Source: an uncultured Thermodesulfobacteriota bacterium (GTDB taxonomy: Bacteria > Desulfobacterota > WTBG01 > CAIYCZ01 > CAIRTM01). From it: DNA of 64,000 nt. A model generated the notes under the pieces. The model had not been told where the DNA came from and searched no databases. It worked only from the letters and a program-made list of their open reading frames with translations. A program made the position numbers and the translations under genes. The stretch lies in NCBI GenBank assembly GCA_964621615.1, contig CAZUMW010000009.1:24802-88801 (forward strand), written 5' to 3'. Shown one piece after another: positions 9,466-63,706 of this stretch; position 1 is the stretch's first letter; each line of letters opens with the position of its first letter.

Positions 9466-10854
9466 CTATCGGCGGTAGCGCTGTTTCTGATACAGCAGGT
9501 CGTAGCGTATTTGTCCGTCGCTGCTGCCTTGTGCAACACCCTGTACCACTGTCTGTCCGAGGCTTCTGCACCGCGGGTCGCTTCCTGCACCTGATGCGAT
9601 GCTGAGGCCGTCCCGGCAGGTTTCATGGTTCATTATCCGCAGGGCTTTAAGGCGCTGATACGGTGAAAGGGCGCTCATGCTGATTCCGGGAATCTGTTCG
9701 ACGTAGCGCCTGTTGCTGCGGCTGAGCGCCTGTTTTGTCTGTTCGGTTTTGTATTGCTCGATAAGAAGCCGTATCCGGGGATCTTCGGGAATCGATTTGT
9801 CGAGAGCCGTGCAGGAATACCGGACGGTGTTCTTTGCCGAAAGCGCGGTCATTTTTTCCTCGAGAGCGGCCCGCTGTGCCGCCAGGTCCTCTCTGCGTAC
9901 CTCATCGGGCGGGCGCTGCTCCAGCCGCCTGAGCTCGCCGATTTTTTTTTGAAGCGCCTCCCGGGCCGTGTGATCAGCAAAGGGCGCCTCAGGATCGATA
10001 ACATGAAGCCTTAGAACGGCTGCATAATTTCCGCCGGAGCCGGGGGAGGCAAGCACGGTGCCGCTTATCAGCCGGGGCGCTTTATCGCGGGCGGGCCCTG
10101 CGGACCCGAGGATGAAATCAATGCCCGCCACCTGCCGCGCCAGCGCCGCGTTTTTCTGCGGCGGCAGCTGTGACAGCGCGATGATAATGGAGCAGCCTTT
10201 ATCCTTCAGGCGGCCCGCCGCGGTTTCAGCAGCCTCAGGGGGGGGGGCGGCTGTAACGGGACCGGCGCGCGAGGCGCCGGCCTCCCCGGCAGCGGCTATG
10301 CCGAAGATGCCGATTTTCAGCGAGCCTGTTCGCTTTATAACCCAGGGCTCGAAAAGACTTTGATTGGTCTCTTTCTGCCGTACGTTGGCGGAAATGCAGG
10401 CAAGCCCGGGGTCGCTCCCCGCCGCTTTCAGGTATTCGGCAGCAGGCCCGCTGTCTCTGAGGCTCACGTTGACCGCATCCGTTCCCATGAGGGCGAGCGC
10501 GTCAAACACACAGCGGGCGCTGCTGTCGCGGGTGCCGTACGGGAAATCCTCCGGCGGCAGCAGGTTCCCGGCATCAAGCAGCAAAACCGAACCGCTTTTT
10601 GAGCGGTGCTCGTGAGCAAGGGATGCCCGCCGTGCGAGGCCGCCCTGGCTTCTGCACCCGCACCCCCGCGGTTCCAGGGCGCCGCTGGTGTTGCCGGTAA
10701 CGATGATAGTAAGGGAGGCCGGCTCAAAGGGCTTTTTGAGCGCGGTGGGAATGCCGGCGCATGAGGCCGCTGTCAGCAGTGCTGCAATGGCGGCAGCAAT
10801 CACAGCTGTGTGAGCGCCGGCACTATGCAGATAATAATTTTGATTTTCTTTCAT
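9466..10854 (-). CDS. Lipoprotein with UshA/5'-nucleotidase-like N-terminal domain (CGC motif) and an extra C-terminal helical domain
   Basis: Lipobox-like TAASC; TGNTSGALEPRGCGC..GGLARR, LLLDAGN, ISANV, KIGIFGI, GIDFILG. Confidence 0.72.
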   Translation of the reverse strand: MKENQNYYLHSAGAHTAVIAAAIAALLTAASCAGIPTALKKPFEPASLTIIVTGNTSGALEPRGCGCRSQGGLARRASLAHEHRSKSGSVLLLDAGNLLPPEDFPYGTRDSSARCVFDALALMGTDAVNVSLRDSGPAAEYLKAAGSDPGLACISANVRQKETNQSLFEPWVIKRTGSLKIGIFGIAAAGEAGASRAGPVTAAPPPEAAETAAGRLKDKGCSIIIALSQLPPQKNAALARQVAGIDFILGSAGPARDKAPRLISGTVLASPGSGGNYAAVLRLHVIDPEAPFADHTAREALQKKIGELRRLEQRPPDEVRREDLAAQRAALEEKMTALSAKNTVRYSCTALDKSIPEDPRIRLLIEQYKTEQTKQALSRSNRRYVEQIPGISMSALSPYQRLKALRIMNHETCRDGLSIASGAGSDPRCRSLGQTVVQGVAQGSSDGQIRYDLLYQKQRYRR

Positions 10855-10927
10855 ATCATAACATGATACCATAATTTAATTATAAATAAAGATCAAACTG
10901 GAAGCTGCTTTCGCTTCAGGGGCACAT

Positions 10928-11761
10928 ATGCAAAAGACCGGAACAGGGTGCAGCGCCGTAAAAGCCGGGCTGCTTGTGATGGACCGCTTTCGACCGGCCG
11001 CGCCCGCGGCTGCTTCGGCGATCTGCCTGCTTGTGCTGCTGTGCGCGCATGCGCCTGCTGCAGCCGGGGAGAGCTTCCCCCGCCCCCGAGGGCCGGTTAA
11101 CGATTTTGCCGGTGTCATATCGCCCCGGATCGAAGCCGCCATGGAGAATCTCTCCCGGGAAGTCCTTCGCAAGACAGGTGCTGCGGTGGTGGTTGCCGCC
11201 GTTGACACGGTGGGCGACAGCGATCCGGCTCTGTATGTCAATGAGCTGTATGAGGCATGGGGTATCGGCAAAAAAGGCGAGGATAAAGGGGTGCTTATAC
11301 TCCTTGCGCTGAAAGAGCGGGCGGTGCGCATCGAAAACGGATACGGCGTCGAAGGGACCCTGCCCGACGGGCTTGCGGGAAGCATACTTGACCGCTATTG
11401 CGTGCCGTACCTCAAGCAGGAGCAATACGGCAAGGGGCTTTTTAATGCTATGGCGGCGGTAAGCGGCGTGATCGCCAAGGACGCGGGCGTCACTATCGGC
11501 CAGGGCGTGCCCCGGCAGCAGCAGCGCACGGCCGCGCGACGCTCAGGCGGGTCCATTATACCGCTTATCGTTGTAGCTTTTTTCTTTTTGTCTCTTTTTT
11601 CGCGGCGGGGGCGCGGTCTTCTGCCCCTTGTGCTTCTTATGGGCATGTCCGGGCGCGGCGGGCTGAGCGGCGGCGGCTTCGGCAGCGGCGGGTTCAGCGG
11701 CGGGTTCGGGGGGTTCGGCGGCGGGCTGAGCGGCGGCGGCGGAGCCGGCAGAAGCTTTTGA
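10928..11761 (+). CDS. TPM domain (DUF477) membrane protein with Gly-rich tail
   Basis: VNDFAGVI, WGIGKKGEDKGVLIL, RIENGYGVEGTLPD and a GGF-repeat tail ending GGGGAGRSF. The true start may be ATG 10979. Confidence 0.92.
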   Translation: MQKTGTGCSAVKAGLLVMDRFRPAAPAAASAICLLVLLCAHAPAAAGESFPRPRGPVNDFAGVISPRIEAAMENLSREVLRKTGAAVVVAAVDTVGDSDPALYVNELYEAWGIGKKGEDKGVLILLALKERAVRIENGYGVEGTLPDGLAGSILDRYCVPYLKQEQYGKGLFNAMAAVSGVIAKDAGVTIGQGVPRQQQRTAARRSGGSIIPLIVVAFFFLSLFSRRGRGLLPLVLLMGMSGRGGLSGGGFGSGGFSGGFGGFGGGLSGGGGAGRSF

Positions 11762-11913
11762 CCGGAATCGTTTCGCGCATGCCCCGCACGGCAGTGCGCG
11801 GCCAAGCGCAATGTATATCAATAAATCAGTGCCGATTATTTTTCAGAAGAGCACGGCGTTGAAATTATTTTTTTGGACGCTGCTGCTGTAACCAATTAAA
11901 GGAGCCATGAGCG

Positions 11914-12654
11914 ATGGCAAAAAGGCCGCACAAGCCCGAGCTGATCTTCGGCGATTTTGTCCACGACTTCAAAGAGCTTCTGGGGCAGGAGCTGCTCAGC
12001 GTTATTGTCTATGGCAGCGCCGCCCGGGGAGAGTACGTTGCCGGAAAGTCCGATATTAACTTTATGGTGATACTGGCAGAGGATGCCATAGATCGCCCGG
12101 CGCGCATGATGCCGCTGATAAAAAAATGGCACAAGCGCTCGGTAAGCACGCCGCTTTTTCTGACCAAAGGATACATTTCGTCATCTCTTGATTCATTCCC
12201 CATAGAGTTTTTGAATTTCAAGTCAGCCTACCGGCTGATCTACGGCGAGGATGTGCTGCAGGATCTGCAGTTTGACAGCAGCCTGCTCCGCCTGCAGTGC
12301 GAGCGCGAGCTCAAGGGCAAGCTGCTGCAGCTGCGGGAGCGCTTTCTTGAAACCGAGGGCAGGCGGGGCCGCATCGAAGAGCTGATTCGTGTGTCGCTCA
12401 CCACGTTTTTATCAATCTTCAGGGCGGTCGTGTTCCTCGAGGGCAGCGAGCCCCCCGGCAATAACAATGAGCTCATCGCTGCCGTGTCCCGCTGTGCGGG
12501 CCTTGACAGCGAGCTGTTTGCTTATCTTGCCGAAATCAGACAGCGGACGCGCACGCTTGATAAAGCAGGCGCTGCCGGGATCATGGAGCGCTACATCGGG
12601 CAGGTGCGAAAGCTGGCGCAGCATATCGACCGCTGTGAGGAGGGCCGGGCCTGA
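11914..12654 (+). CDS. Nucleotidyltransferase-domain protein
   Basis: VYGSAARGEY..SDINF motif, DSFPIEFL and LRLQCERELKGK; lies between the TPM and LemA genes. Confidence 0.82.
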   Translation: MAKRPHKPELIFGDFVHDFKELLGQELLSVIVYGSAARGEYVAGKSDINFMVILAEDAIDRPARMMPLIKKWHKRSVSTPLFLTKGYISSSLDSFPIEFLNFKSAYRLIYGEDVLQDLQFDSSLLRLQCERELKGKLLQLRERFLETEGRRGRIEELIRVSLTTFLSIFRAVVFLEGSEPPGNNNELIAAVSRCAGLDSELFAYLAEIRQRTRTLDKAGAAGIMERYIGQVRKLAQHIDRCEEGRA

Positions 12655-18813: not shown

Positions 18814-20529
18814 TTATTGTTCCGCGCCGAACAGGCCGGGGTTAACAACCAGCCCGGGGGTTGCGCTTACCGGGCCGTGACTGACTGCTTCCCCGAAAAT
18901 ATCGATATCCTCTATTATGTATGAATAGCGCGTCCTGTTTTTCACGCCAGTGTCTATATAGCGATAGCGCGCGCCGGCTGTCTGCGAGCCTCTGGCCGGT
19001 ATCAGCCCGCTGTTAATCTGTGTGTAGCCCCCTTTGTTTTTAGAGCGATATATGTTAAAGCCTGCGCTGTCCACTTCCGATGCGGTGGCCCAGGTGAGAA
19101 CGACTTTTCTGTTGCCCGGCGATGCGTTCAGATCGCTTATCGTTACAAGAGTCTGGCAGGTACAGTCCTGACACTGTCCGGAGGGGCAGTCTGCATCTGA
19201 TTCACAGGTTTCACCGGGCTCGATTACCCCGTTGCCGCACTCAGGCTCCACGCACGTGCAGCCGTCGCAATACCGGCCGGCAGGGCAGTCGGCATCCGAT
19301 TCGCACTCTTCGGCCCCTTCCACTATTCCGTTACCGCAGACCGGCTGAACACACTGACATCCCTGACAGAATTGACCTGCGGGGCAGTCGGTGTCAATTT
19401 CGCACTGCTCTCCCGGGTCGAGGGTGCCGTCCCCGCAGAGCGGCTCGCCTTTGAGCAATGTCCCGCTGCTGCCCGCAATGAATACGGTATCGGCTGAACT
19501 GCCCCACACGCTGTTCAGGTCTGAGCCTGTGCTTGAGGGCATGGCGGCCCAGCTGCTTCCGTCATGGTGCAGAATCGTGCCGCTGTTTCCCACCGCATAC
19601 ACATCGCCTGCTGCAGATCCCCATACGGCATTGAGATTATTACCTGTCGGGGAGTCCATGGTAGACCAGGAAGTACCGTCATAGTGCAGAATCGTTCCGA
19701 ATTCGCCAACAGCGAATATATCATCGGCCGCGCTCCCCCAAATGCCGTAAAGCGTTTCAGTCGATCCGGTTTCAACCGCAGTCCAGTCATACCCTTCTTT
19801 CCAGCCGGTGGTGTGGATAATGTTCGTATGGGTACCGCTTTGACACAGCATCAATGTATTTTTTTTGCACCCGTATTCACCAACCGCGTAGACATTCTGC
19901 TCGGAGCTGCCCCACACGCCGTACAAATCGATGTTGAACATGGTCGGCGGGTCGCTTTCAGCCTTGTTCACATTGCTGTTGTCAATGTCAAGGTACTGCA
20001 TGTTGTAGTAATAGGTAGCAATAAGAAACGAGCCGATAAACAGATTTCCCGGGGCCCATATTTTGTTCACTGAAACGCCCCATAAATCATATATACCCTT
20101 ACCGCTGAGGTTATTTGACGATACTTTTTCCCAGCCGGACCCGTTAAAGTAATAAACAGTTCTGTTCTGCCGGGCGCCGATGAATACGTTGTCTCCGTCT
20201 GCTCCCCATATTGTCTGCAGATCCCGATCAGCTTTGTCCGGGCTGAAATCGGCGAGCCTCCATTCGCGGCCCGTATAGTGCAGTACCGTTCCGGCCCCCG
20301 TCGGGCCGACATCCCCGATCGCGTAAATATTCGATGAGCCGCTTCCCCAGATATCGTTCAAGTCCGTGCCGGATAAATCATACGTCTCAGTCGATGTGCA
20401 CGCAGGGCTGATTGAGCCTACATCGATCTGCACCCATTGAAACGCACAGGTGTTTACCGGCAGAAGCATACAGAAAACAGTAAGTGCGGCTATTGTTGCT
20501 GTATGCGTGTGCGCTGTGTATTTCCGCAT
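18814..20529 (-). CDS. Secreted beta-propeller protein with three Cys-rich repeats and a C-terminal Ig/FN3-like domain
   Basis: Signal peptide; seven [LI]xx[IVL]WG(S)..[IV][YFW]A[VI]G repeats; three CG[DN]G..E.CE.D.DCP.G..C..C.C repeats; tail LTWATASEVDSAGFNIYRS..IEDID..GPVSATP. Confidence 0.85.
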   Translation of the reverse strand: MRKYTAHTHTATIAALTVFCMLLPVNTCAFQWVQIDVGSISPACTSTETYDLSGTDLNDIWGSGSSNIYAIGDVGPTGAGTVLHYTGREWRLADFSPDKADRDLQTIWGADGDNVFIGARQNRTVYYFNGSGWEKVSSNNLSGKGIYDLWGVSVNKIWAPGNLFIGSFLIATYYYNMQYLDIDNSNVNKAESDPPTMFNIDLYGVWGSSEQNVYAVGEYGCKKNTLMLCQSGTHTNIIHTTGWKEGYDWTAVETGSTETLYGIWGSAADDIFAVGEFGTILHYDGTSWSTMDSPTGNNLNAVWGSAAGDVYAVGNSGTILHHDGSSWAAMPSSTGSDLNSVWGSSADTVFIAGSSGTLLKGEPLCGDGTLDPGEQCEIDTDCPAGQFCQGCQCVQPVCGNGIVEGAEECESDADCPAGRYCDGCTCVEPECGNGVIEPGETCESDADCPSGQCQDCTCQTLVTISDLNASPGNRKVVLTWATASEVDSAGFNIYRSKNKGGYTQINSGLIPARGSQTAGARYRYIDTGVKNRTRYSYIIEDIDIFGEAVSHGPVSATPGLVVNPGLFGAEQ

Positions 20530-20631
20530 TTTTAGTACCTCTTTCTCATACGTATTGATTAATGTAATGGTTAGCGGGCCTAACGCTTGACACATGTAAA
20601 ATAATTGTAATACCGAACTATTGCTAGTGTA

Positions 20632-25191: not shown

Positions 25192-25263
25192 CCGCCGTCT
25201 ATAAGTGTGTACAAGAACTGCTGCGCACATTCAGGGTACCGCTCCCGGGGGATTATTGCTTCC

Positions 25264-25965
25264 ATGGAACAGCTTATTGCCGGTTATTTTAAAAAAAACA
25301 AGGAAAATCAAAATGCGCTGCCCTGTCCGTCAGAGGAGACCCTCTGGGACTATATGAGCGGAAGGCTTCCGGCACGGGCGTCGGAACAGGTTGCGCAGCA
25401 TTTGTGCAGCTGCGATCTGTGTGCCCGGACTCTGGTTGCCGCGGCTGAAACCGAGCCGCCTGCCCTTGAGGAGGTGCCGGGCCAGGGATGTGCTCCCCTG
25501 GTCAGCAGGCGGGTTCTGCAGCAGATCCCCCAGCCGGTGAGCGCCGGATGGCGGGGATGGGGGCGCGCCCTCGCAGAGCGTATCCGCGAAGCGGCGGGCG
25601 CCGCTGCCGGGTGGCTGTATCCCGCCTCTGCCGAGTATGTGTATGTGCGCGGAAGAACGCACGTCATATCAAAAAACCTTGTTGTTCTTGAAAAAGAATT
25701 TAAAGATATAACGCTTGAAATCGAGCTGGAAAAGACCGATACACAGAGTACCGATATAAAAGTGTATGCCCGGCGCCCGGGAATCGGAGCCCCGGCGGAC
25801 GGCCTGAGAATAAACCTGTACGCCGGCGATGCGGAAACGGCTTCCTGTGTGACGCACCGGGGGGAGGCGCTTTTTGAGCAGCTCGGATTCGGTGAATACC
25901 GGCTTCGGGTGATGGAGAACGAAAAAAACCGGGGTGAAGTGTTACTTACCATCAAGGAGCAATAG
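25264..25965 (+). CDS. Soluble zf-HC2 (ZAS) anti-sigma factor with a C-terminal Ig-like domain
   Basis: CPSEETLWDYMSG..HLCSCDLC (HxxxCxxC); no TM segment; beta-rich C-terminus (LRINLY..ALFEQLGFGEYRL); directly follows the sigma gene. Confidence 0.85.
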   Translation: MEQLIAGYFKKNKENQNALPCPSEETLWDYMSGRLPARASEQVAQHLCSCDLCARTLVAAAETEPPALEEVPGQGCAPLVSRRVLQQIPQPVSAGWRGWGRALAERIREAAGAAAGWLYPASAEYVYVRGRTHVISKNLVVLEKEFKDITLEIELEKTDTQSTDIKVYARRPGIGAPADGLRINLYAGDAETASCVTHRGEALFEQLGFGEYRLRVMENEKNRGEVLLTIKEQ

Positions 25966-38259: not shown

Positions 38260-40029
38260 ATGAAATGGTACCGCTCGCTTCGAACAAAGCTGACCCTGAT
38301 ACTTATGGCGGCAAGCCTTGCAGCCACCTGTGTTACATCGGTCGCGTTTGTTGCGCTTGAGCTCTACACCCGCCGAAGCCTCCTTGTCGATGATATTACC
38401 GCCCAGGCCGAGCTGCTTGCCCGCAATTGCCAGGCAGCCCTTGCATTCAGGGTTCCTGAGGATGCCGATGCGATCCTGAACTCTCTGAAAAGCAAGACCG
38501 ATATTGCATATGCCTGCATATTTGACGCTGAGGGTGATGTGTTTGCCCAATACCGTCATCCCCGTGCACAAGAGCGCGCTTTTCTGCACGAGTCGGCTGA
38601 CGAGCGCCATGTCATCCGTGACAGGACCATGCACGTATACCGTGACATTTATCTGGATGAGAAGCCGGTCGGGGCGGTGTATATACAGGCTGACATGAAG
38701 CGCATATATTCGGCGCTTCGCCGCGATATGGCCCTGCTCGGGCTTGTGCTGCTGCTGGGAGCGCTTGTCGCCTTTGTGCTTTCGGCGCGGCTGCAGCGGC
38801 TTGTTTCGAAACCGGTTCTTGCCCTGGCAGAGACAGCCGGGGCTGTTTCGCATAACAATGATTACTCGGTGCGGGCCGAAAAGAAAAGCGGCGATGAAAT
38901 CGGCGTATTGATCGATGCCTTCAACACAATGCTCAACCGCATTCAGGAGCACGAGGTCGCCCTGAACGCCAGCACCGAGCGATTCCGGTCCCTGGTTGAG
39001 ACGACAAGCGACTGGATATGGGAAACCGATGCAAAGGGCTATTATACATATGCGAGCCCGGCGATACAGCCCATTCTCGGCTATCGGCCCGAGGACATTA
39101 TCGGCAGGCGGCTGTCTGATTTTATGCCTGAATACGAGTCAGCGCATGCGGGGCGGTCCATGCGCCGCAGGATGAAATCCTGTAAGCCGATTGTTATGTT
39201 TGAAACAAAACAGCTCCACCGCAACGGCGGGCTGGTGGTAATGGAAACCAGCGGGGTCCCTTTTTTTGACGGGTCAGGAACGCTGCTCGGCTACCGGGGG
39301 GTCGCCAGGGATGTTACAGAGCGGAGGCAGCTGGTGAGCGAGCTTGCAAATAAGACTCGCGAGCTTGAAAGTTTTGTGTATACTGTTTCACATGACCTGA
39401 AGGCGCCGCTGGTAAGCCTTGGCGGGTTCAGCTCCCTGCTTGTCAATCGCTATGGCGATATGCTGGACGCGGACGGCCGCCATTATCTGGAGCGGATTCA
39501 GGCAAACACGGCGCATATGGGCCGCATGATCGCAGAGCTTCTGGAGCTGTCGCGCATAGGGCGCGTTGTGGGGGATCGTAGCGCAGTGAATATGGACGAG
39601 CTGGCGGCGAAAGTCAGGGAGGATTTGCGGCCGGAGCTTGAGCTCAGGAACATCGATCTCAGAATACTCTCGCCGCTGCCGCGGCCTGTTGCCGATCGCG
39701 ACCGCATCGCGCAGGTTCTTGAGAATCTTTTTTCAAACGCGATACAATTTATGGGCGATCAGCAGGAGCCTGCTATAGAAGCCGGCTCGAGCGGGCAGCA
39801 GTCCGGCAAATATCTTTTTTTCGTCCGCGACAACGGAATCGGCATAGAGCCGGAATATTACGAAAAAATTTTCCAGCTGTTTCAGCGGCTTAACGACATC
39901 GACACAGACGGCACGGGGATCGGGCTGGCAATCGTTAAGCGAGTCATCGAGCATCATGGCGGCAGCATCTGGGTTGAATCACAGAAAGGGGAGGGCAGCA
40001 CGTTTTTCTTTACCCTCCCGGCGGAATAG
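38260..40029 (+). CDS. Sensor histidine kinase (periplasmic sensor-HAMP-PAS-HisKA-HATPase)
   Basis: Two TMs, HAMP DEIGVLIDAFN, PAS, H-box VSHDLKAPL, NLFSNA, DNGIGI, GTGIGL. Confidence 0.95.
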   Translation: MKWYRSLRTKLTLILMAASLAATCVTSVAFVALELYTRRSLLVDDITAQAELLARNCQAALAFRVPEDADAILNSLKSKTDIAYACIFDAEGDVFAQYRHPRAQERAFLHESADERHVIRDRTMHVYRDIYLDEKPVGAVYIQADMKRIYSALRRDMALLGLVLLLGALVAFVLSARLQRLVSKPVLALAETAGAVSHNNDYSVRAEKKSGDEIGVLIDAFNTMLNRIQEHEVALNASTERFRSLVETTSDWIWETDAKGYYTYASPAIQPILGYRPEDIIGRRLSDFMPEYESAHAGRSMRRRMKSCKPIVMFETKQLHRNGGLVVMETSGVPFFDGSGTLLGYRGVARDVTERRQLVSELANKTRELESFVYTVSHDLKAPLVSLGGFSSLLVNRYGDMLDADGRHYLERIQANTAHMGRMIAELLELSRIGRVVGDRSAVNMDELAAKVREDLRPELELRNIDLRILSPLPRPVADRDRIAQVLENLFSNAIQFMGDQQEPAIEAGSSGQQSGKYLFFVRDNGIGIEPEYYEKIFQLFQRLNDIDTDGTGIGLAIVKRVIEHHGGSIWVESQKGEGSTFFFTLPAE

Positions 40030-42905: not shown

Positions 42906-43969
42906 ACATTCTGTATGGTATTCAGGCCACCGGCAACGGCCATATCAGCCGCTCACGCGAGGTGGTCGGCGCTTTAAAGAATGCAGGCCACAGCGTTTTT
43001 GTCATATTCAGCGGCCGAGATGCATCCCGGCTATGGAATGTTGAGCCCTTTGAGCCGTATGGTGTCTATGCAGGCATGACCTTTTGTTATGCGCGTGGGA
43101 GGATAAAGTATCTATCCACTCTGAAACAGCTCAGCCCCGTTCGCCTGTATCGCGATATCGTGTCGTTTCATGCACGGCCGTTCGACCTTGTTATAACCGA
43201 TTTCGAGCCGCTTTCAGCCCGTATTGCGCGGCGAAACAAAATCCCCAGTGTGGGTATCGGCCATCAATATGCGTTCCGGTATGCCATTCCCACAGCCGGG
43301 GGAGATCCCCTCGCACGGCTTGTTCTGCGGTATTTTGCACCTGCAGACCATGCGCTGGGCCTCCACTGGCATCATTTTGACGAGCCGATACTGCCCCCGA
43401 TACTGCCCCCGATGAGCGATGATGGCCGAGAGCCTGATCCGGATAAAATACTGGTTTACTTCCCGTTTGAATCCCGGCGTGACGTGCTGCAGCTCCTTGC
43501 ACCGTTTAGAAATGTCCGCTTCCATTATTATGCTGATGTGCCTGACCGAATCGAGCGGGGGAATGTGCTGCTGTGCCCCCACTCACGAAGCAGCTTTTTG
43601 CAGGATCTGCACACCTGCTCAGGGGTTATTACCAATGCCGGGTTTGAACTTCCCAGCGAAGCGCTTCGGATGGGTGCAAAGCTGCTGGTAAAACCTCTTG
43701 CAGGCCAGTTTGAGCAGGAATCTAATGCGCACACGCTTGAGCAGCTGAGGCTTGCGGCGGTTATGCGAGGCCTTGATCCGCAGGCTGTCAGCACATGGCT
43801 TGCAGCACCGCAGCCAGCGCCCGTCAGATATCCGCAGATAGGGAAATTTATTGCAGACTGGGTTGTTCGGGGACGGTGGTCAGAGGTGCGCGATGCCGTT
43901 GCGTCGGTGTGGAGGCAGGTAGAGGCCGGATCGGGGAAACGCGCGTTTCAGGAATGCTTTTCATTATGA
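42902..43969 (+). CDS. MJ1255/VC2487-family glycosyltransferase
   Basis: ILYGIQATGNGHISR, VITDFEP, GIGHQYAF, NAGFELPSEAL, GQFEQESN; GTGA overlap with the PAP2 gene. Confidence 0.87.
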   Translation: MNILYGIQATGNGHISRSREVVGALKNAGHSVFVIFSGRDASRLWNVEPFEPYGVYAGMTFCYARGRIKYLSTLKQLSPVRLYRDIVSFHARPFDLVITDFEPLSARIARRNKIPSVGIGHQYAFRYAIPTAGGDPLARLVLRYFAPADHALGLHWHHFDEPILPPILPPMSDDGREPDPDKILVYFPFESRRDVLQLLAPFRNVRFHYYADVPDRIERGNVLLCPHSRSSFLQDLHTCSGVITNAGFELPSEALRMGAKLLVKPLAGQFEQESNAHTLEQLRLAAVMRGLDPQAVSTWLAAPQPAPVRYPQIGKFIADWVVRGRWSEVRDAVASVWRQVEAGSGKRAFQECFSL

Positions 43970-46309
43970 GGGTGATTGATTTGCCGGTAAGGCCGCCTGT
44001 ATTGCTTTTAAAAGCTCAGCTATCGTGTACGGCTTCTGGATGTAGCGATATTTTTTTTCCTGGATGATGGTTCGCTGCGATTTTTCGTCTGTGTAGCCGC
44101 TGCACAGAATGGCCTGGACCGCCGGGTTTCTTCCGCGGATTTTTTCCACGAGGTCAAGCCCGTTTTCATCCGGCAGCACCACATCGCTGAGCACCAGAAG
44201 GATCTGATCGCTGTGCTGCTCAAACAGCGCAAGGGCCTCGCCGGCATCCGCAGCGTCATGTACCGTATAATTGTGCAGGCGGAGTGCCTCCGCACAGAAC
44301 AGGCGCACCTCCTTTTGATCCTCGACAACAAGAATATGCTCATTGTTGCCCCTCAGGGCTTCGGGGCTTAGCGGCTGTGTGCTGCTTTCCTGGGGGGGAA
44401 CGAACACCGCCGGCAGGTGCATGTTAAACGTGGTGCCCGCTGACGGATTGCTGTCCACGGCAATCCATCCGCCGTGCTGCTTCACGATGCCGTATACCAC
44501 GGCGAGGCCGAGGCCGGTGCCGCTGCCTGAGTCTTTGGTGCTGAAAAACGGCTCAAAGATACGCTCTGCGGTAGCGGGGTCCATGCCGATGCCCGTATCC
44601 GAAAAAGACACGCGAATATACTTTCCGGGACGCGCATCCGGGATGCTGCGGCACTGCTCCGGCGTTATTGTGACATTTTGGCTGCTGATAGTGAGCTCGC
44701 CGCCCTGGGGCATGGCGTCCCTGGCATTGACGACCAGATTCATGATAACCTGTTCCATGTTGCCGGCATCGGCCCGCACCGTCCACAAATCGTGGGCAAG
44801 GCAGTTTGAAAAATGAATGTTTTCGCCAATCAGGCGGCCGAGCATTTTGTGCATGTTTTCGATCGTGGTGTTTATGTTAATCAGGGTCGGCTCCATCGGC
44901 TGCTTGCGGCTGAACAGCAGCAGCTGCCGGGTAAGGGCCGCAGCCCGTACAGCGGCACGCTGAACCTGGCTCAGCTTGCTGTACAGGGGGTGCGATTCGT
45001 CAAGCTCAAGCATGCCCATTTCAACATACCCCTGAATGGTGGTTAAAAGGTTGTTGAAATCGTGCGCCACGCCCCCCGCCAGAATGCCGACAGCTTCCAT
45101 TTTCTGTGCCTGGAGCAGCTGTGCATAGATCTTTTTTTTCTCCTCATCAGCCTGTTTGTTTTCTGTTATGTCAGATATGACGACATAGCGGCCGGTTGTC
45201 TGACCGTCGACGCGGCATACGGAGTACCGGTTGTTTATGCACCGGCGGGTTCCGTCTTTTCGGGTTATCCAGTATTCTAGCTCACGCGGCGGGATGCCGG
45301 TCTCTTTCATTTCGGCATCTATCACCCTCAGCCGGCGGTGCTCTTCCGGGGCGGCAAGCCCCATTCCGTCCAGCTGCGTCAGCTCTTCGCGGGTGTAGCC
45401 CAGTATATCGCTGGCTCTGTTGTTGGCGTAGACGATCCGGTCGTTTTCTATAATCAGGAGCCCGTCCTGAATATTGTCAACCATGCGGCGGAAGCGATCT
45501 TCGCTTTCCTGAAGCGCCTCATCGGCACGAATGCGCTCGGCGATTTCCCGCTCCAGCTCATTGCGGGCTTTTTCCGCATCATTGGCGCGCGACTCGGCAT
45601 TTTCAGTTGCCTCGATCAGTGCGCGGTCGCGCTCCTGAATCTGATCGAGCATGCTGTTGAAGGCATTCATGAGCAGCCCCATTTCATCATTTGTTGATGG
45701 GACTGCGCGGACGCTGTAATTTTTTTTCTCTGAAACAGTGCGGGCGGTTTCGGTCAGCGACAGTATCGGGCGGGAGATTATGCGCTGGAGCTGCACGGCG
45801 ATAAGCGCAGCTGCGCATGCTCCCATAATTATCACTATCAGTATAATCATCAGATCGTATTTCAGGGCATTGGCGATTTGCTGCATATCGGAGCACAGGT
45901 ATACCGATCCGATGCGCGAATCGCCGAGGCGTACGGGATGCAGAATGTGCAGGTGCTTTTTGCTGAATGCGTATCCGCTTTTAAGGTATTCCGGCGGTGT
46001 GAGGCTGCCGCTGACCCCGGAGCGCGTGTACTGGGCAAACAGCTCGCCGTCTGCGGTATAGACACTGGCCGTAATAATTGATGATTTAGCCCACAGAGCG
46101 CTGAGAATCTCGCGAGCGTCTTCCGGAACGCCGAACGCGATCGCTGCCTGTGCGTTGCTGCCGATTACCTGCGCCTGCACCGTTAAATCAGCAACCAGCG
46201 CGCGGCGCATGGCGACGATATCAAACACGACAAACGCGCAGCATGAGATGAGCATCGCTGCGGTGCTGGTCAGTATCAGGATTGCGGTCAGCTTTTTTTT
46301 AATGGTCAT
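43964..46309 (-). CDS. Hybrid sensor kinase (sensor-HAMP-PAS-HisKA-HATPase-REC)
   Basis: Two TMs, HAMP, PAS, AGGVAHDFNNLL, NLVVNARDA, GTGLGL, and a C-terminal REC domain. Confidence 0.95.
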   Translation of the reverse strand: MTIKKKLTAILILTSTAAMLISCCAFVVFDIVAMRRALVADLTVQAQVIGSNAQAAIAFGVPEDAREILSALWAKSSIITASVYTADGELFAQYTRSGVSGSLTPPEYLKSGYAFSKKHLHILHPVRLGDSRIGSVYLCSDMQQIANALKYDLMIILIVIIMGACAAALIAVQLQRIISRPILSLTETARTVSEKKNYSVRAVPSTNDEMGLLMNAFNSMLDQIQERDRALIEATENAESRANDAEKARNELEREIAERIRADEALQESEDRFRRMVDNIQDGLLIIENDRIVYANNRASDILGYTREELTQLDGMGLAAPEEHRRLRVIDAEMKETGIPPRELEYWITRKDGTRRCINNRYSVCRVDGQTTGRYVVISDITENKQADEEKKKIYAQLLQAQKMEAVGILAGGVAHDFNNLLTTIQGYVEMGMLELDESHPLYSKLSQVQRAAVRAAALTRQLLLFSRKQPMEPTLININTTIENMHKMLGRLIGENIHFSNCLAHDLWTVRADAGNMEQVIMNLVVNARDAMPQGGELTISSQNVTITPEQCRSIPDARPGKYIRVSFSDTGIGMDPATAERIFEPFFSTKDSGSGTGLGLAVVYGIVKQHGGWIAVDSNPSAGTTFNMHLPAVFVPPQESSTQPLSPEALRGNNEHILVVEDQKEVRLFCAEALRLHNYTVHDAADAGEALALFEQHSDQILLVLSDVVLPDENGLDLVEKIRGRNPAVQAILCSGYTDEKSQRTIIQEKKYRYIQKPYTIAELLKAIQAALPANQSPS

Positions 46310-46940
46310 ATGGGCTGCCGCTCCGGTTATGCGGGTGTGCTGCTTTGAAAGCGGTGTGCATACGGTGCTCCTGCTGCTTTGAGGTTGGCGATGGGGGGCC
46401 GCTGAGCACCCGGACCGCCGCTCTAAGCATTTTTGAGCTTATGGTCAGCCCCGCAGCGTTTGCCCGGCGAAGGTTAACCGCAAACCGGATCCGTCCGCTG
46501 ACCGTATGAAATTCAATAATGCCGCCGGCTTCGACAAATCCGTTAATGTCCGAGACGGTCAAAACCGGCGCGCTGTCAATATTCTGCAGTATTTCTGTGA
46601 GGTTGTTTTGCTCTGATGAGCTGACATACAGGATTTCATAACGCTCCAGGTCACAATCCTTCCGGTACGGGCCCAGATAGGTAACGGCGAGATGTCTGCT
46701 TTTTGCGTGAAGATACGTCCCGTCAATTTCATTGAAATAGTTTTTGAAGGGGCTTGTTCCCAGAACGGCGATCCTCAAAGGGTTTTCGCCGGTGCGAGGG
46801 CTCGCCACGGGGGAGGCTGTTTCCGAGACCTGGCGGGATGAGGGCGGGGATGCTGCCTCCTGCCCCTCCCCCGGCCAGGTGACAAACATAATGAATTTGT
46901 AAATGTAGGCCGCTTTTACCTTGAATTCAGGGGCGGTCAT
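46299..46940 (-). CDS. YfiR-family (DUF4154) periplasmic protein
   Basis: KVKAAYIYKFIMFVTWP, VLTVSD, RIRFAVNL..AGLTISSKML. The real start is probably upstream (see findings). Confidence 0.9.
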   Translation of the reverse strand: MTAPEFKVKAAYIYKFIMFVTWPGEGQEAASPPSSRQVSETASPVASPRTGENPLRIAVLGTSPFKNYFNEIDGTYLHAKSRHLAVTYLGPYRKDCDLERYEILYVSSSEQNNLTEILQNIDSAPVLTVSDINGFVEAGGIIEFHTVSGRIRFAVNLRRANAAGLTISSKMLRAAVRVLSGPPSPTSKQQEHRMHTAFKAAHPHNRSGSPYDH

Positions 46941-47098: not shown

Positions 47099-49096
47099 TT
47101 AGTACTTTATTGTAATGCCTACGGTAGTCGAACGCTCCGGCCCCCCCGGTATAGTGTCAATATTCCTGCGCACAACCTCTGCATACGTGTAGTCTTCATC
47201 AAAAAGGTTGTTTACCGTTAAAAACAGCTCTATATGTTTGTTAATAGCCGGCCGGTAATACACGGCTATGTTTGTGGTAAAAAAGGAATTCGACTCTTCC
47301 CAGTCATCCCGATACCGCGTTGCGGTGCTCAGGGTGAGACAGTCCCAGGGCTTGTATGTGACGCCGAAATTCACCATATGGCGAATGATATAGTCGAGGT
47401 GCTCATGCGTTTCGTGGTTTTTTGTGTCGAAGGTATAGGTGCCGTTAAGAAAAAACGTGACTGTGTCCCGGTATGAATATTTCAGCTCGTACTCGAGTCC
47501 GTGAATTTCCTGCTTGTCCGCATTTTCATAGGTCGGCATGCCGTCCGGCCCCTCGACGCGGTATATGGGATCGCTGAGCTTGTTCCAGAAATAGACAAGT
47601 GATGCGGACAGGCTGTTCTGAAAGCTGTAATACAGGCCGGCATCGAGACCCCGCATCGTTTCAGGATCAAGGTGACGGTTGCCCCGAATAACCGGGGTCG
47701 ACGTGCTGAACAGCTCGTAATAATTCGGCGAGCGATACGAGGTTCCATACAGCAGCTTGGCCACCAGCCCCGGCATAAGCCGGTAGACAAGGCCGGCGCG
47801 ATAGTCGGCGTGATTTTTTGTAACGCTGTTATAGGTGTAGCGCAGCCCCCCCACAAAATCGAGCTTTTTGCTTATCGAGTAATTGAGGTTGCAGTACCAG
47901 GCTTTATCGCTCGTGTGCTGATCCGTCCGCCACGGGGAGATGGCCAGGCCGTGTGAGGTGCGGCGGCTCGCCACCTTGTAGGGATTTGCATGGTAGCGGT
48001 CATACAGTATCCCGGTTATCAGGTGAAGGCGGTCCGGGAGCGTTATCTCAGCGTACAACTCAGCGCCGTATTTGTAATTGTTATAGGATGATTTGGCCGG
48101 GTCATGCGCAGACGGGTCAATGGTGTATACGCCGTAAATGCGGTAGGAGCGGTCAGAATAGTCGTATCTCAGCGTTCCGTGCAGGGTGAGCCAGCTGTTG
48201 CAGCGGTGAGCATACCGGGCATCAATGAAAAACTGGTGTTTGTCCAGCTCGCGCGCCCGGAAGGCCCTGTCCGGCAGCAGGCCGATTTTGGGGGTGTTTT
48301 TTTCATTGAAATATGACAGATCGATTTCGAGATCTTTGTATGCAACTGTTAAGAACATGGTGGTGTAGTTCATATAGTGGCGGTGTGACAGCCCGCGCCC
48401 GCTTTCATCCTGCTCGGGCTTGATCCTGAGCGTATCGCCGTGCTGATCTCTTACCGATGCTGCCAGAAAGTAGCGAAGGTCGCCCCTGGTCTGCGCTGTT
48501 GTGAGGCGGGCTTCATGCGTGTCAAACGAGCCGTACTGATATCTGAGCTCACACCCTGCATCGGGCATTGTCTTGCGGGTTATGATGTTGATAACGCCGG
48601 TGAGCGCGTTTGTCCCGTACAGCACTGATGCGGGCCCGCGCACCAGCTCGATTTTTTCTATTGCATTTATCGGGATTGCGTTTACCTCGAACGCGCCCTG
48701 GGCGGGATAGTAGGTCGGGTGGCCGTTTACGGTAAAGAGGACTTTTGAGTTGAAGTGCTGCCTGCCGAAATTGTTCCGGATTGAGAGCTGGTTGAACGGT
48801 GTTACGTAGGAATCGTAGTGAAATATGCCCGGCATGAAAGCGATTGCCTCTGCCACGGTATGCACGCCGAGATTTTTTATGTCCTCGCGGGTGAGGACGC
48901 TTGCGATGCCCGGGGCATATGCCACGGATTCCTCTCGTTTGGACACCGCCTCAACGGAAACGGCCATCAGCTGCTCGAAGGGCATTTCGAACAGGCTGTC
49001 CGATTCTTTTTCACCGGCGCGCGCCGGCCCGGCACCGCCTATGGTGAGCAGAAGCGCGCTCAGGAGAAGACAGCTGTAGACAATTTTTTTTACCAT
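47099..49096 (-). CDS. TonB-dependent receptor
   Basis: Signal peptide; SLFEMPFEQLM, plug domain IEKIELVRGPASVLYG; barrel; terminal NNLFDEDY..GITIKY. Confidence 0.93.
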   Translation of the reverse strand: MVKKIVYSCLLLSALLLTIGGAGPARAGEKESDSLFEMPFEQLMAVSVEAVSKREESVAYAPGIASVLTREDIKNLGVHTVAEAIAFMPGIFHYDSYVTPFNQLSIRNNFGRQHFNSKVLFTVNGHPTYYPAQGAFEVNAIPINAIEKIELVRGPASVLYGTNALTGVINIITRKTMPDAGCELRYQYGSFDTHEARLTTAQTRGDLRYFLAASVRDQHGDTLRIKPEQDESGRGLSHRHYMNYTTMFLTVAYKDLEIDLSYFNEKNTPKIGLLPDRAFRARELDKHQFFIDARYAHRCNSWLTLHGTLRYDYSDRSYRIYGVYTIDPSAHDPAKSSYNNYKYGAELYAEITLPDRLHLITGILYDRYHANPYKVASRRTSHGLAISPWRTDQHTSDKAWYCNLNYSISKKLDFVGGLRYTYNSVTKNHADYRAGLVYRLMPGLVAKLLYGTSYRSPNYYELFSTSTPVIRGNRHLDPETMRGLDAGLYYSFQNSLSASLVYFWNKLSDPIYRVEGPDGMPTYENADKQEIHGLEYELKYSYRDTVTFFLNGTYTFDTKNHETHEHLDYIIRHMVNFGVTYKPWDCLTLSTATRYRDDWEESNSFFTTNIAVYYRPAINKHIELFLTVNNLFDEDYTYAEVVRRNIDTIPGGPERSTTVGITIKY

Positions 49097-49254
49097 GCGG
49101 GCCGCCTGTACAGAGTGCGGGCTGCCGTGGCATATGGTATCAGGAAGAATAATGGTGTGTATGCTGTTCATCTCACCACATGCGGCGATGGAAAACCGGT
49201 TTTTGAATGTAGCGTTAACGTGTGCGCGCCGGTGAAAGCCTGCATCATCCGAAA

Positions 49255-50289
49255 TCACCGGGGCGCGTGTTCAAGGACAGCAGCAGCATTGAGCACTGTT
49301 TCCAGAAGACCGGGAAACTCGCGGCGGCGCCTGAGCGTATTTTTTAAATGATCGAGCCCTGCAGGGATATACCGCAAAAATTCCCGTTTTCCTTTTTTCA
49401 GCCCCAGAAATGAAAACGCCGCCAGCGCCTGCATGGTGCGCTGCAGCGATGCGTAATCCAGCAGCGTGAAAAACTGTTCAGTGTCGCTAAATGTATTCTC
49501 ACACAAATCATTCAGGGTGTCAATGTAGTAGTGTGCAATCAGGCGCTGCTCGTCGGGCTCAAGCACGAAATAGGCATCCTTAAGCAGCGAGGCCAGGTCA
49601 TAGTGAACGGGACCGCGGGTGGCTGTCTGGAAATCGATAATGCGTATCTGATCGTTTTTTACATAAATATTTTTTGACTGAAAGTCCCGGTGCATAAAAT
49701 GCCGGGGGGCGCCGGACAGCGCTGCCGCCAGCATATGGTATTCCTGCTCGAGCGCGCTGGTGCTGTTTCCGGTGACTGCACACATCGCCTCCAGGAATGA
49801 CTCTTTAAAATAGTGTGTTTCAAAGCGAAACGCTTCATAGCCGAAGCAGCGCCCCTTCAGCGCGGGGCACATCTCAAGGTCTGTGCCTGCCCGGCTGTGG
49901 AGGCGGGCAAGGAATGCCGCAGCGCGCCGGTACCAGGATCGTACTTCCAGCCGGGTGGAGCATCCGTGCAGTACGGTTTCAAGGCTGCTGTCGCCGAGAT
50001 CCTCCATGATAAGCAGCCTGTTTGGCATATCGGCGGCAATTATGTGCGGCGCGCCGAGCCCCCGGTCAAAAAGAAATGCTCCGATGTCGCAATACTGCTG
50101 AAGCTCATGGTTTGAGCGCGGATCGTGCATGATGACATACCCGTGGCTTCCGGACCGGAGCCGGTAAAAGACCCGGTCCGACCCCCCTCTGGCAAGCTCG
50201 CACAAAACAGGATTTTCAGAGCGCAGGCCCGGAATTGCCTCATAAGCAAAATCAAGCATTTTCCTGTGCAGCAAACTCCCTTCAGACAT
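49255..50289 (-). CDS. Phosphotransferase, AmgK-like (MurNAc/GlcNAc anomeric kinase)
   Basis: RGGSDRVFYRL, MEDLGD, HRDFQSKNI, IDFQ..GP..YDLASLL; adjacent to a nucleotidyltransferase. Confidence 0.8.
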   Translation of the reverse strand: MSEGSLLHRKMLDFAYEAIPGLRSENPVLCELARGGSDRVFYRLRSGSHGYVIMHDPRSNHELQQYCDIGAFLFDRGLGAPHIIAADMPNRLLIMEDLGDSSLETVLHGCSTRLEVRSWYRRAAAFLARLHSRAGTDLEMCPALKGRCFGYEAFRFETHYFKESFLEAMCAVTGNSTSALEQEYHMLAAALSGAPRHFMHRDFQSKNIYVKNDQIRIIDFQTATRGPVHYDLASLLKDAYFVLEPDEQRLIAHYYIDTLNDLCENTFSDTEQFFTLLDYASLQRTMQALAAFSFLGLKKGKREFLRYIPAGLDHLKNTLRRRREFPGLLETVLNAAAVLEHAPR

Positions 50290-61940: not shown

Positions 61941-63092
61941 CTACTGAGCAGTGTTTTTGGGAGGCTTGCCGGTTTTTTGCTTCCGGCTGACTGTTTTGTT
62001 TTTGCGCCCGAAGACCCGCACGTCGATGGACGGCTGCTCCTTGTCATCGGTTTCAATGATAATTTTACCCCGCAATAGAATTTTGCTGTAGCTTGCGGGC
62101 ACCGTTGCGGTGATCCGGTAGCGCTTTCCTTTTTCAACCGTTTCATAGGCGACAGAAAGCTCCTGAACCGTTGAGCGAACGCCCGTAATATGAAAGGTGG
62201 TGTCTGCCGAGGATGCTTCGAGCATAAGCTCACGGGTGTGCTCTTTGCCGGATTCGAACCGTCCGAACGACATATATGAAGGGTTTGTTTTTATGTTGCC
62301 GATAATCCACCCGTACACATACACCCGCAGCTGCTTTACTTTTTCGTGGTCGGTGTGCACGGTGACCACATCCCGGAAGCGCCCGACATCAATGCCGGGG
62401 AGCAGCGTTATTTTTATGTGCTTGTCCTTATGGCCCGGAAACCCGTTCGGGCTTGCTTCCAGCTGAATGTGTTTGTTTCGTGAGGTTACCGAGGTTATGC
62501 GGCATCGTTCGGCATCCTTGCCGCTCAGCGCCACATAGCGTGATGTGCGCTTGAGGTCTTTTTTGTTCAGCCTGCCGAAATTGATCCGGCTCGGCCGTGT
62601 CGCCAGCACCACCTTGACATCGGCGATAACGGAGAGCTGCACCACTTTGTTGTCAGGATCGTTTGTGTATACCCGGATGGTTTTTTTATGCGTGCCGCCC
62701 CGGGAGCCCACTTTGAACGTGACGTTGATTTTCCCTTCCCCGCCCGGGGGAATTTTCCTGGCCGAAGCCAGGGCTGCGGTACAGCCTCAGCCGGATTTTA
62801 CTTTCTGAATGTCAAGCTCTGCGCCCCCGCTGTTTTTGAAAGCGAAGGTGTGCTTGAGGCGCGAGTTCTGTGCGCTATCCCCGAAATCATGTACGCGCGC
62901 ATCGAATACGATGCGGGGTGCTTTGACGCTGCCGTCCTGTTTTTTCTGCTGAGCCGCGGGCTGCTCACCGGAAGCGGGCTGCTTTGCTTCCGTGCCATCT
63001 GCAGCGCGGACGATCGATGCGCATGCCGCAACAAAGACAATTGCGGCGCACGCAGCGCGCATAAATGTGGATCCATAGCCGTTTCTGTGCAT
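61941..63092 (-). CDS. DUF1573-domain exported protein with an in-frame TGA (probable selenocysteine)
   Basis: Track ORFs 62787-63134 and 61941-62711 are one frame: ..HTFAFKNSGGAELDIQKVKSG-TGA-GCTAALAS..IPPGGEGKI... The TGA sits at the first Cys of the family CGC motif. Confidence 0.87.
62757..62786 (-). promoter_or_regulatory. Candidate bacterial SECIS element
   Basis: Directly 3' of the TGA: GGCTG-TACCG-CAGCC, overlapping CCTGGC-TTCG-GCCAGG, whose G-containing loop lies 20 nt downstream of the UGA. Confidence 0.6.
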
Positions 63093-63262
63093 AAAGCGTG
63101 ACCTTTCTCTGTGCGTTTTTTTGGCTGACTGCAAAATGAGCTTGAAAACCCGTCAGCCACTGTGCTAGGTATTAAACTGCCGGTTCCGCACGATGGTTGT
63201 ACTATATATATCCACGGTACATATGAAAAGTATTTTTTCATTATACCACAAAGGAGGATAAC

Positions 63263-63706
63263 ATGAAAAAAGTTATAGTACTTCTGGTGAGCATCTTCGT
63301 TTTTCTACCCTCAGCTGCGGGCGCGCACTGCGATGCGTGCCGGGGTGCGTTTCAGATCCGGCACATTGATTGCCTGGACATGCATGCCGGCGACGGAGCG
63401 CTCACGATCACTGTGTGCCTGACCATGTCTGACGGCAGGGAGTATATCGTGCCGGTAACAGTGTACGATGATCTCCGGGCGAGGCTTGAATTTGCTTCCG
63501 GCACCACCATCGAGGCGCGCCCCGGCTCCATTGAAATATTCTCCGGAGACGGCTATCAGCAGTTCGACGACATCGACAACACTACCAGCTTCCTTGTTGC
63601 CTATGACAGCACAGAGTGTCTGATCGCGGCGGTCCTGTGCCTTACAACGGGATTCACCGGCGTTGGGCTGCTGTTTTGCTACTGGGCCTATGTGGCCTGC
63701 TTTTAG
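63263..63706 (+). CDS. Exported hypothetical protein with a Cys-rich hydrophobic C-terminus
   Basis: RBS AGGAGG, signal peptide, CDAC, tail CLIAAVLCLTTGFTGVGLLFCYWAYVACF. Confidence 0.8.
   Translation: MKKVIVLLVSIFVFLPSAAGAHCDACRGAFQIRHIDCLDMHAGDGALTITVCLTMSDGREYIVPVTVYDDLRARLEFASGTTIEARPGSIEIFSGDGYQQFDDIDNTTSFLVAYDSTECLIAAVLCLTTGFTGVGLLFCYWAYVACF

Follow-up and report, generated by a model that had tools for sequence, protein, structure and literature searches.

A DUF1573 gene of the OS_HP2 family with a predicted selenocysteine codon and two conserved downstream hairpins in a Thermodesulfobacteriota bacterium

Organization of the locus

The minus strand of the window (by which is meant the whole 64,000-nucleotide stretch of DNA analysed, from an uncultured Thermodesulfobacteriota bacterium) carries a frame-1 coding sequence, 63134 to 61941, in which translation meets a single internal stop codon, the TGA at 62789-62787, ahead of the terminal TAG at 61943-61941. 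The peptide around the internal stop reads ...DIQKVKSG-[TGA]-GCTAALASARKIPPGGEGK..., the flanks being ...FAFKNSGGAELDIQKVKSG on the upstream side and GCTAALASARKIPPGGEGKINVTFK... on the downstream side, and the codons across the site are KSG-TGA-GGC-TGT-ACC. (What this means operationally is that the TGA would provide the first position, and the TGT at 62783-62781 the Cys, of a U-G-C motif.) A preliminary description had proposed that the two open reading frames on either side of the TGA are one gene, and this is borne out: they share a frame, nothing but the lone TGA separates them, and a single DUF1573 domain straddles it. Coding sequence past the TGA (62786-61941, minus strand) specifies the rest of domain 1, two more Ig-like β-sandwich domains and a basic tail, as judged from translation and from the structural model of an orthologue that is discussed below.

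The TTG at 63134, with which the preliminary description began the gene, is less likely to be the start codon than the ATG at 63092-63090 (MHRNGYGSTFMRAAC...). The ATG is preferred because a Shine-Dalgarno-like box, GAAAGG, lies 9 nt upstream of it and because the gene caller, working on the identical Logan contig (L007), begins its 101-residue N-terminal piece there. From this ATG to the TAG ending at 61941 the product has 383 residues when the internal stop is read as Cys, and the TGA is codon 102. The first ~31 residues (63092-63000, minus strand) look like a signal peptide, with a basic n-region, the hydrophobic stretch AACAAIVFVAA and then VRA/AD; a comparable hydrophobic N-terminus is found in all orthologues compared, and the protein is probably exported. 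The VAAC sequence within this segment was considered as a lipoprotein signal and rejected; a lipobox is present in no orthologue.

The gene is probably transcribed singly, as a monocistronic unit. A promoter-like site (TTTTCA, an 18-nt spacer and TG-TATAAT; 63269-63240, minus strand) and a weaker second one (63229-63201) lie upstream, both of them weak candidates in that the consensus scan returned 2 sites where 1.1 are expected, and a weak terminator-like stem-loop with a T run (61911-61892, minus strand), likewise from a consensus scan, lies ~30 nt past the stop codon. The divergent neighbour (63263-63706, plus strand) is an open reading frame for a Cys-rich protein of 147 residues with a signal peptide and a C-terminal hydrophobic segment; it has no Pfam or NCBIfam match, and a 38% identical homologue stands beside the orthologue in L001. 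Next, just beyond the end of the window, comes the gene of an AF_1845-like (PF27226) lipoprotein. It is the one recurrent neighbour, of Sec and Cys forms of the gene alike, at six loci: L007 (the window's own contig), L001/L010, L011, L009, L090 and L094. A Thermodesulfobacteriota MAG has a ClpB 78% identical to the one in the window and shares with this locus the order ClpB, SpoIID, the AF_1845-like gene, a ~150-residue gene and the gene considered here.

Membership of a known family

With the TGA read as Cys, residues 61-156 (62912-62625, minus strand) match the DUF1573 profile PF07610 of Pfam along positions 1-95 of its 98 (1.6e-28; 99 bits, the cut-off being 26.1). The NCBIfam model NF041425, 'OS_HP2 family (seleno)protein', is matched by residues 65-160 with a borderline score, 100.1 bits where the cut-off is 100 (U replaced by C), and by all six aligned orthologues, the best of them at E = 1.3e-31. 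OS_HP2 is one of six new selenoprotein families described from the metagenome of the Olavius algarvensis symbionts (Zhang & Gladyshev 2007, PMC1976440). It was entered as 'OS_HP2, pfam07610, UxC', with 354 Cys homologues, in a subsequent survey of the GOS data (Zhang & Gladyshev 2008, PMC2398784), and is listed as 'DUF1573 domain-containing protein, UGC' in reviews of 2022 and 2026 (PMC9312934, PMC13188914); it is treated as a computational prediction in PMC9312934, PMC13188914 and PMC1976440. Because of the NF041425 match and these published OS_HP2/DUF1573 UxC entries, the gene of the window is a member of an already known selenoprotein family, and its recognition is a rediscovery.

The correspondence is close: OS_HP2 proteins share the pfam07610 domain, the UxC (UGC) motif, in which Sec substitutes for the first Cys, and a stem-loop directly past the UGA, their hosts are Deltaproteobacteria/Thermodesulfobacteriota of the sulfate-reducer type, and the window protein's HMM score reaches the curated cut-off. 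There is no essential difference; this is another member. Without counterpart in the OS_HP2 literature cited here are the three-domain architecture, the two hairpin loop classes (NUCN and AGUUCA), the second hairpin and the AF_1845-like neighbour. The Cys-containing DUF1573 proteins (PF07610; abundant in Bacteroidota, Planctomycetota, Acidobacteriota and others) have in common with the window protein the Ig-like domain, the C-G-C-T sequence and a conserved TNDP motif, and differ from it in having a TGC or TGT codon with no hairpin past it. The residues before the motif also differ, being usually T-T or S-T in the Cys proteins and A-G, S-G or A-S in the Sec forms.

Conservation of the TGA and its alternation with Cys codons

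A protein search and scans of GTDB representative genomes and JGI metagenomes yielded 22 unique sequence contexts (the window and 21 relatives) with TGA at the same codon and 92 unique homologue contexts with TGC or TGT there. Cys homologues place [TS][TS]-C-G-C-T at the TGA site, so that the TGA falls on the first Cys of the CGC motif, as had been proposed; the aligned residue is always Cys and never Gly or Trp. The 21 other TGA contexts are 25-50% identical in protein sequence (the best match among GTDB representative genomes being 47% identical), with conservation on both flanks of the TGA. They are found in Thermodesulfobacteriota (L010-L013), in Thermodesulfovibrio/Nitrospirota (L039, L042, L043) and in a Leptospirales MAG (L030), and as two tandem paralogues in the unclassified MAGs L014 and L016. 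In a neighbour-joining tree of 99 domain sequences (short sequences, no bootstrap) all TGA forms fall into one clade with the window protein inside it, and the sole Cys form nested in that clade, the sister of the window protein, is P0002 of locus L009. This full-length Cys orthologue is a continuous protein of 356 residues, 48% identical to the window protein (...KVRTTCGCTAALASEKEIPPGG..., with TTCGCT at the motif).

Seen in one sequence alone, a domain broken by a lone in-frame stop could reflect faulty sequencing or assembly, or a pseudogene that has recently acquired a nonsense mutation. Against this, two further assemblies, L007 (SRR7048225) and L008 (SRR7048224), each built from a separate run, have the identical TGA, which all but disposes of the sequencing error that was to be checked for; the same codon is TGA in the 21 other contexts across the protein distances just given; protein sequence is conserved on both of its sides; and the hairpin that accompanies the TGA covaries. 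The probability of an error or a pseudogene is accordingly negligible.

Gene callers treat the locus as two genes, and a 101-residue exported fragment followed by a downstream reading frame with an internal start would also be the outcome of genuine termination. Some termination at the UGA is to be expected under selenium limitation; that bacterial selenoprotein mRNAs terminate at UGA when selenium is limiting is established. As an account of the gene itself, two separate products are nevertheless very improbable. The break would fall in the middle of a β-sandwich domain, the supposed start of the second frame varies (GTG 62711 here, TTG or CTG within 'ALAS' in other orthologues), beyond the TGA there is neither a conserved start codon nor a ribosome-binding site, nor a second signal peptide, and the Cys orthologue P0002 is one uninterrupted protein. 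Nine orthologue entries (P0003-P0011) make the same point from the side of annotation: all begin 'MASAKEIPPGGEGK' ('MASAKEIPPGG'), directly past the motif, and the DNA of each has a ~90-residue upstream piece, an in-frame TGA at the same codon and then GGN-TGY-ACN-GCN.

A SECIS-like hairpin that accompanies the TGA

A SECIS-like hairpin, CCUGGC-UUCG-GCCAGG (62772-62757, minus strand; nt 18-33 if the U of UGA is nt 1), starts 14 nt past the TGA, leaving 20 nt between the UGA and the loop. The preliminary description had noted this UUCG-capped hairpin at SECIS distance, and comparison among relatives upholds it. A corresponding hairpin is present in all 22 TGA forms, albeit with an internal mismatch or bulge in 2-3 members (L011, L094, L014b), and comes in two length classes. 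In class A, which comprises Thermodesulfobacteriota and the L014/L016 lineage, the stem joins nt 17-23 to nt 28-34 around a 4-nt loop, N-U-C-N; in class B (Nitrospirota, L117 and L030), nt 18-24 pair with nt 31-37 around a 6-nt loop, AGUUCA or UCUGAU.

The helix is supported by covariation. Pairing extends to 91% of cells across the 16 class-A sequences, compared with 15-53% for controls in which the partner strand was slid; compensatory double changes are found in 4 of its 7 pairs and are in part synonymous (UUG/GCC to UUA/GCU in L096; CUG/AGG versus UUG/AAA); and RNAalifold, unguided, predicts the same helix. It is also specific to TGA forms, whose mean folding energy over nt 14-40 is -10.0 kcal/mol as against -3.2 kcal/mol for Cys forms (Mann-Whitney p = 1e-12, phylogeny not corrected for). 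The contrast persists when the comparison is made with the 33 Cys forms that have the same peptide, CGCTAAL, and in the Cys revertant L009/P0002 the complementarity is lost (GCC to GAG). Nt 4-18 could also form a lower helix, GGCUGY/GCAGCC, but this pairs nearly as well in Cys forms (0.82) as in TGA forms (0.91) and was rejected as a mere consequence of the codons for G-C-T-A-A.

Comparison with the SECIS element of the E. coli fdhF type shows likeness in placement, a hairpin within coding sequence shortly past the UGA. The spacer is 13-14 nt here; in fdhF, ~11 nt separate the UGA from the minimal upper helix. Loops are small and pyrimidine-rich, U-C is invariant at loop positions 2-3 of class A, and in several relatives a G precedes the U-C (GUCA, GUCC, AGUUCA); other loops are AUCU and CUCA. 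On the other hand, the helix is short (6-7 bp) with a 4-nt loop and no evident bulged U, a second hairpin comes next, the window's own UUCG loop lacks a G in its first two positions, and binding by SelB is only proposed. The bSECISearch consensus that Zhang and Gladyshev drew up in 2005 reportedly has 16-37 nt from the UGA to an apical loop with a G at position 1 or 2; in the window the spacing is 20 nt and the only G of the loop is at position 4. Rfam searches found no SECIS or other relevant family, either in the whole window at gathering thresholds or in 62650-62850 at permissive E-values.

Decoding of the UGA

Bacterial selenoprotein genes are customarily recognized in silico by three features together, namely Sec and Cys codons in alternation, a UGA that is conserved and a hairpin that goes with it (criteria of PMC1976440). 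Because the conserved TGA, the Sec/Cys alternation and the TGA-specific covarying hairpin are all found here, the earlier proposal of a selenoprotein is sustained, and the UGA at 62789-62787 is very probably read as Sec.

Insertion of some other amino acid, by a near-cognate tRNA (Trp, Cys, Arg) or under a reassigned code (UGA as Gly or Trp), might be suggested by the Gly residues that stand on both sides of the codon. However, of the 37 open reading frames in the window that have a full-length Pfam match, 16 end in TGA, more than in any other stop codon, and the genetic code is therefore standard. The residue aligned at the site in homologues is, moreover, Cys throughout and never Gly or Trp; decoding by SelB is typically marked by a conserved downstream hairpin at just such a spacing; and the family is curated as a selenoprotein family (NF041425). 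A tRNA-Sec gene lies near one orthologue: on contig L097 it is found 1.9 kb downstream of the TGA form (ARAGORN, anticodon TCA; RF01852 at 75 bits, gathering threshold 47). Readthrough that does not insert Sec is, all told, most improbable.

The window itself holds no tRNA (ARAGORN) and no tRNA-Sec (Rfam), and Pfam searches of 40 further open reading frames found no SelA, SelB or SelD domain and no known selenoprotein family. Because no decoding machinery was seen within these 64 kb, Sec incorporation is something that we infer; Thermodesulfobacteriota are among the phyla richest in selenoproteins (PMC13188914). Among the ~55 pairs of open reading frames that a scan of the window returned (one TGA between them, 60 codons or more to either side), no other pair made a convincing interrupted gene. 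An in-frame pair in L001 (15995-17002) was also considered as an interrupted gene and was rejected; a TAA lies between its members, which are two adjacent genes.

Under the selenoprotein reading, SelB carrying Sec-tRNA(Sec) would bind the hairpin that starts 14 nt downstream of the UGA and deliver Sec to the ribosome, so that U-G-C replaces the C-G-C of the family, perhaps with the assistance of the second hairpin, which starts 4 nt beyond the first. The product would be a protein of ~383 residues with three Ig-like β-sandwich domains, presumably exported through the Sec translocon.

A second conserved hairpin

The second hairpin, UUCCCC-CGGGC-GGGGAA (CGGGN in relatives; 62752-62736, minus strand; nt 38-54), coincides with codons for I-P-P-G-G-E. 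Codons for Pro and Gly are inherently complementary, and the hairpin is less clear in class B.

The helix is paired in 16 of 16 class-A TGA forms, and compatible codons for I-P-P-G-G-E are expected, from the codon usage of the window, in ~4% of lineages. Synonymous positions within the stem are invariant or covary, whereas those of the loop and of the flanks are free to vary. In L014/L016 a compensatory change from CG to UA combines a Gly-to-Glu substitution with the synonymous change of CCC to CCU. Like the first hairpin, it is lost in the Cys revertant L009. Sec and Cys forms differ less in this region than over the first hairpin (-7.7 versus -5.8 kcal/mol, p = 0.002). The second hairpin may contribute to recoding as an accessory element, and may be new to science; if it does matter for decoding, it would extend the one-hairpin picture of bacterial SECIS elements.

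Protein structure and possible function of the U-G-C motif

The structure considered here is an AlphaFold2 model of the Cys orthologue P0002, as a stand-in, at 48% identity, for the window protein (mean pLDDT 90, pTM 0.71). Past a disordered signal region the model consists of three β-sandwich domains and has no helices; its C-G-C (residues 81-83) is located in a short exposed connector between two strands of domain 1. Foldseek searches with the model returned only HYDIN/ASH-type, cadherin and titin Ig modules and the uncharacterised Porphyromonas gingivalis protein 2qsv. The HYDIN/ASH/PapD-like Ig domains (PF22544, PF15780; PDB 7sqc and 9ijj, and the bacterial 2qsv) are the best structural and profile matches, but they are structural or adhesive modules without CGC or UGC, and the likeness is one of fold only. 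Sequence and profile searches of the PDB found no solved relative with the CGC motif, the sole PDB relative being 2qsv, which lacks it.

The protein does not belong with the thioredoxin-fold UxxC/CxxC oxidoreductases: its fold is all-β and Ig-like, and a single residue separates the two chalcogens (U-G-C). It may be compared with CXC redox motifs. A CGC peptide acts as a mimic of PDI, C-G-C being a PDI-like redox motif, and Mia40 uses CPC. Shared with these are the two chalcogen residues with one Gly between them, in a connector that is exposed in the model; the scaffold differs, an Ig-like β-sandwich rather than a thioredoxin or helical fold, and an oxidoreductase role for DUF1573 proteins is putative.

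Our best guess at function, which is put forward tentatively and at somewhat less than an even chance, is that the protein provides a periplasmic selenol/thiol redox centre with a selenenylsulfide formed across U-G-C. It is favoured because C-G-C behaves as a PDI-like motif and because Sec/Cys pairs most often mark redox-catalytic Cys residues (a principle cited in PMC9312934, ref. 62). That same principle tells against the main alternative, that U-G-C, carried by a periplasmic Ig-like scaffold, binds soft metals or metalloids (Hg, Cu(I), Cd, As), and the neighbourhoods likewise offer it little, there being no metal-resistance or transport genes consistently adjacent. A metal site would, for its part, suit the fold, which is not thioredoxin-like, and would have precedent in the several predicted bacterial selenoproteins that handle metals (MerT/MerP-like, heavy-metal ATPase, YHS and CobW-like; PMC9312934, PMC2398784). 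In favour of a metal site there is also a His that is invariant in 'LKHTF' of six close aligned orthologues; against it, the TGA forms L014a/L016a have Asn at this position, and many Cys forms have still other residues. Binding of metal by U-G-C is possible, though rather less likely than not. Among the OS_HP2 gene neighbourhoods examined there is no redox or metal partner.

The several features might, speculatively, be brought together in one picture: a bipartite recoding signal (a SelB-type hairpin, 3-4 nt, and then the second hairpin under selection at synonymous sites, the two being lost jointly on reversion from Sec to Cys), and U-G-C carried on an exported rod of three Ig domains that is paired with the AF_1845-like lipoprotein, as an uncharacterised periplasmic class that performs selenol redox chemistry or handles metals on a non-thioredoxin fold. 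As a whole this composite is rather less likely than not.

Consequences for annotation

That standard pipelines would split the gene was anticipated in the preliminary description and is what is found: L007 has pieces of 101 and 256 residues, and the entries P0003-P0011 are C-terminal fragments. More generally, public calls for the gene and its orthologues consist of a ~90-100-residue piece and a 256-282-residue piece, or name only the C-terminal fragment; because they are split or truncated in this way, counts of selenoproteomes from MAGs miss the gene. The remedy is to merge the pieces, with Sec at residue 102. The existence of a Sec/Cys pair at this position also implies that the first Cys of the DUF1573 CGC motif is functionally critical, and does so for a very large family, its 354 Cys homologues having come from the GOS data alone (PMC2398784).

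Conserved features of OS_HP2 genes

A second hairpin (62736-62752, minus strand) starts 3-4 nt past the SECIS-like hairpin of the window's OS_HP2 gene and is kept in 16/16 of the class A TGA forms (homologues with an in-frame TGA at the predicted Sec codon and a SECIS-like hairpin with a 4-nt loop). It is gone from the Cys revertant L009, which is nested among TGA forms. Selection at synonymous sites may preserve this second hairpin in the class A TGA forms; the cited papers on OS_HP2 make no mention of it.

The residue preceding Sec is Gly or Ser in every TGA form (the sequences being A-G-U, S-G-U, A-S-U and T-S-U). Most Cys forms have T-T-C or S-T-C at the corresponding place, with exceptions that include S-G-C (in L108) and A-G-C (in L143). 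The difference may stem from the chemistry of Sec or from the context of the UGA codon.

Two unclassified MAGs carry tandem OS_HP2 paralogues, two apiece and spaced about 1.2 kb (L014:3169 and 4366; L016:3169 and 4365), and in both genomes each paralogue has an in-frame TGA and hairpins of its own.

Genomic neighbourhood

Contig L097 carries a TGA-form OS_HP2 orthologue and, 1.9 kb downstream of it, a tRNA-Sec gene (L097:5903-5999; anticodon TCA; RF01852, 75 bits), with tRNA-Phe and a TRAM/tRNA(U5)-methyltransferase gene between them.

The divergent neighbour of OS_HP2 in the window (63263-63706, plus strand) encodes a Cys-rich protein of 147 aa with an HCDACRG motif and no family match, which is predicted to be secreted or membrane-anchored. 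The next gene, just beyond the window end (271-819 of the identical contig L007), encodes an AF_1845-like (PF27226) lipoprotein; at six loci, a Cys form among them, OS_HP2 has an AF_1845-like neighbour.

Other regions of the window

Long ORFs of 468, 169, 246 and 593 aa (9466-12654 and 18814-20595) have no Pfam match at 1e-5. The segment 24550-31616 (plus strand) is an unusual cluster of signalling and envelope genes: an ECF-like sigma factor gene comes first, followed by an ORF (25207-25965) without family match, a 1099-aa protein with adenylate/guanylate cyclase, CHAT (caspase-like), TPR and CsgG-like regions, and a 696-aa protein with TPR, Glucodextran_B, Big_13 and CsgG-like regions. The segment 38260-49258 contains two CHASE8-HAMP-PAS histidine kinases (38260-40029, plus strand; 43964-46309, minus strand, the latter a hybrid) and response regulators. 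Also encoded there are a YfiR/DUF4154 protein at 46299-46940 and, at 47099-49258, a TonB-dependent receptor.
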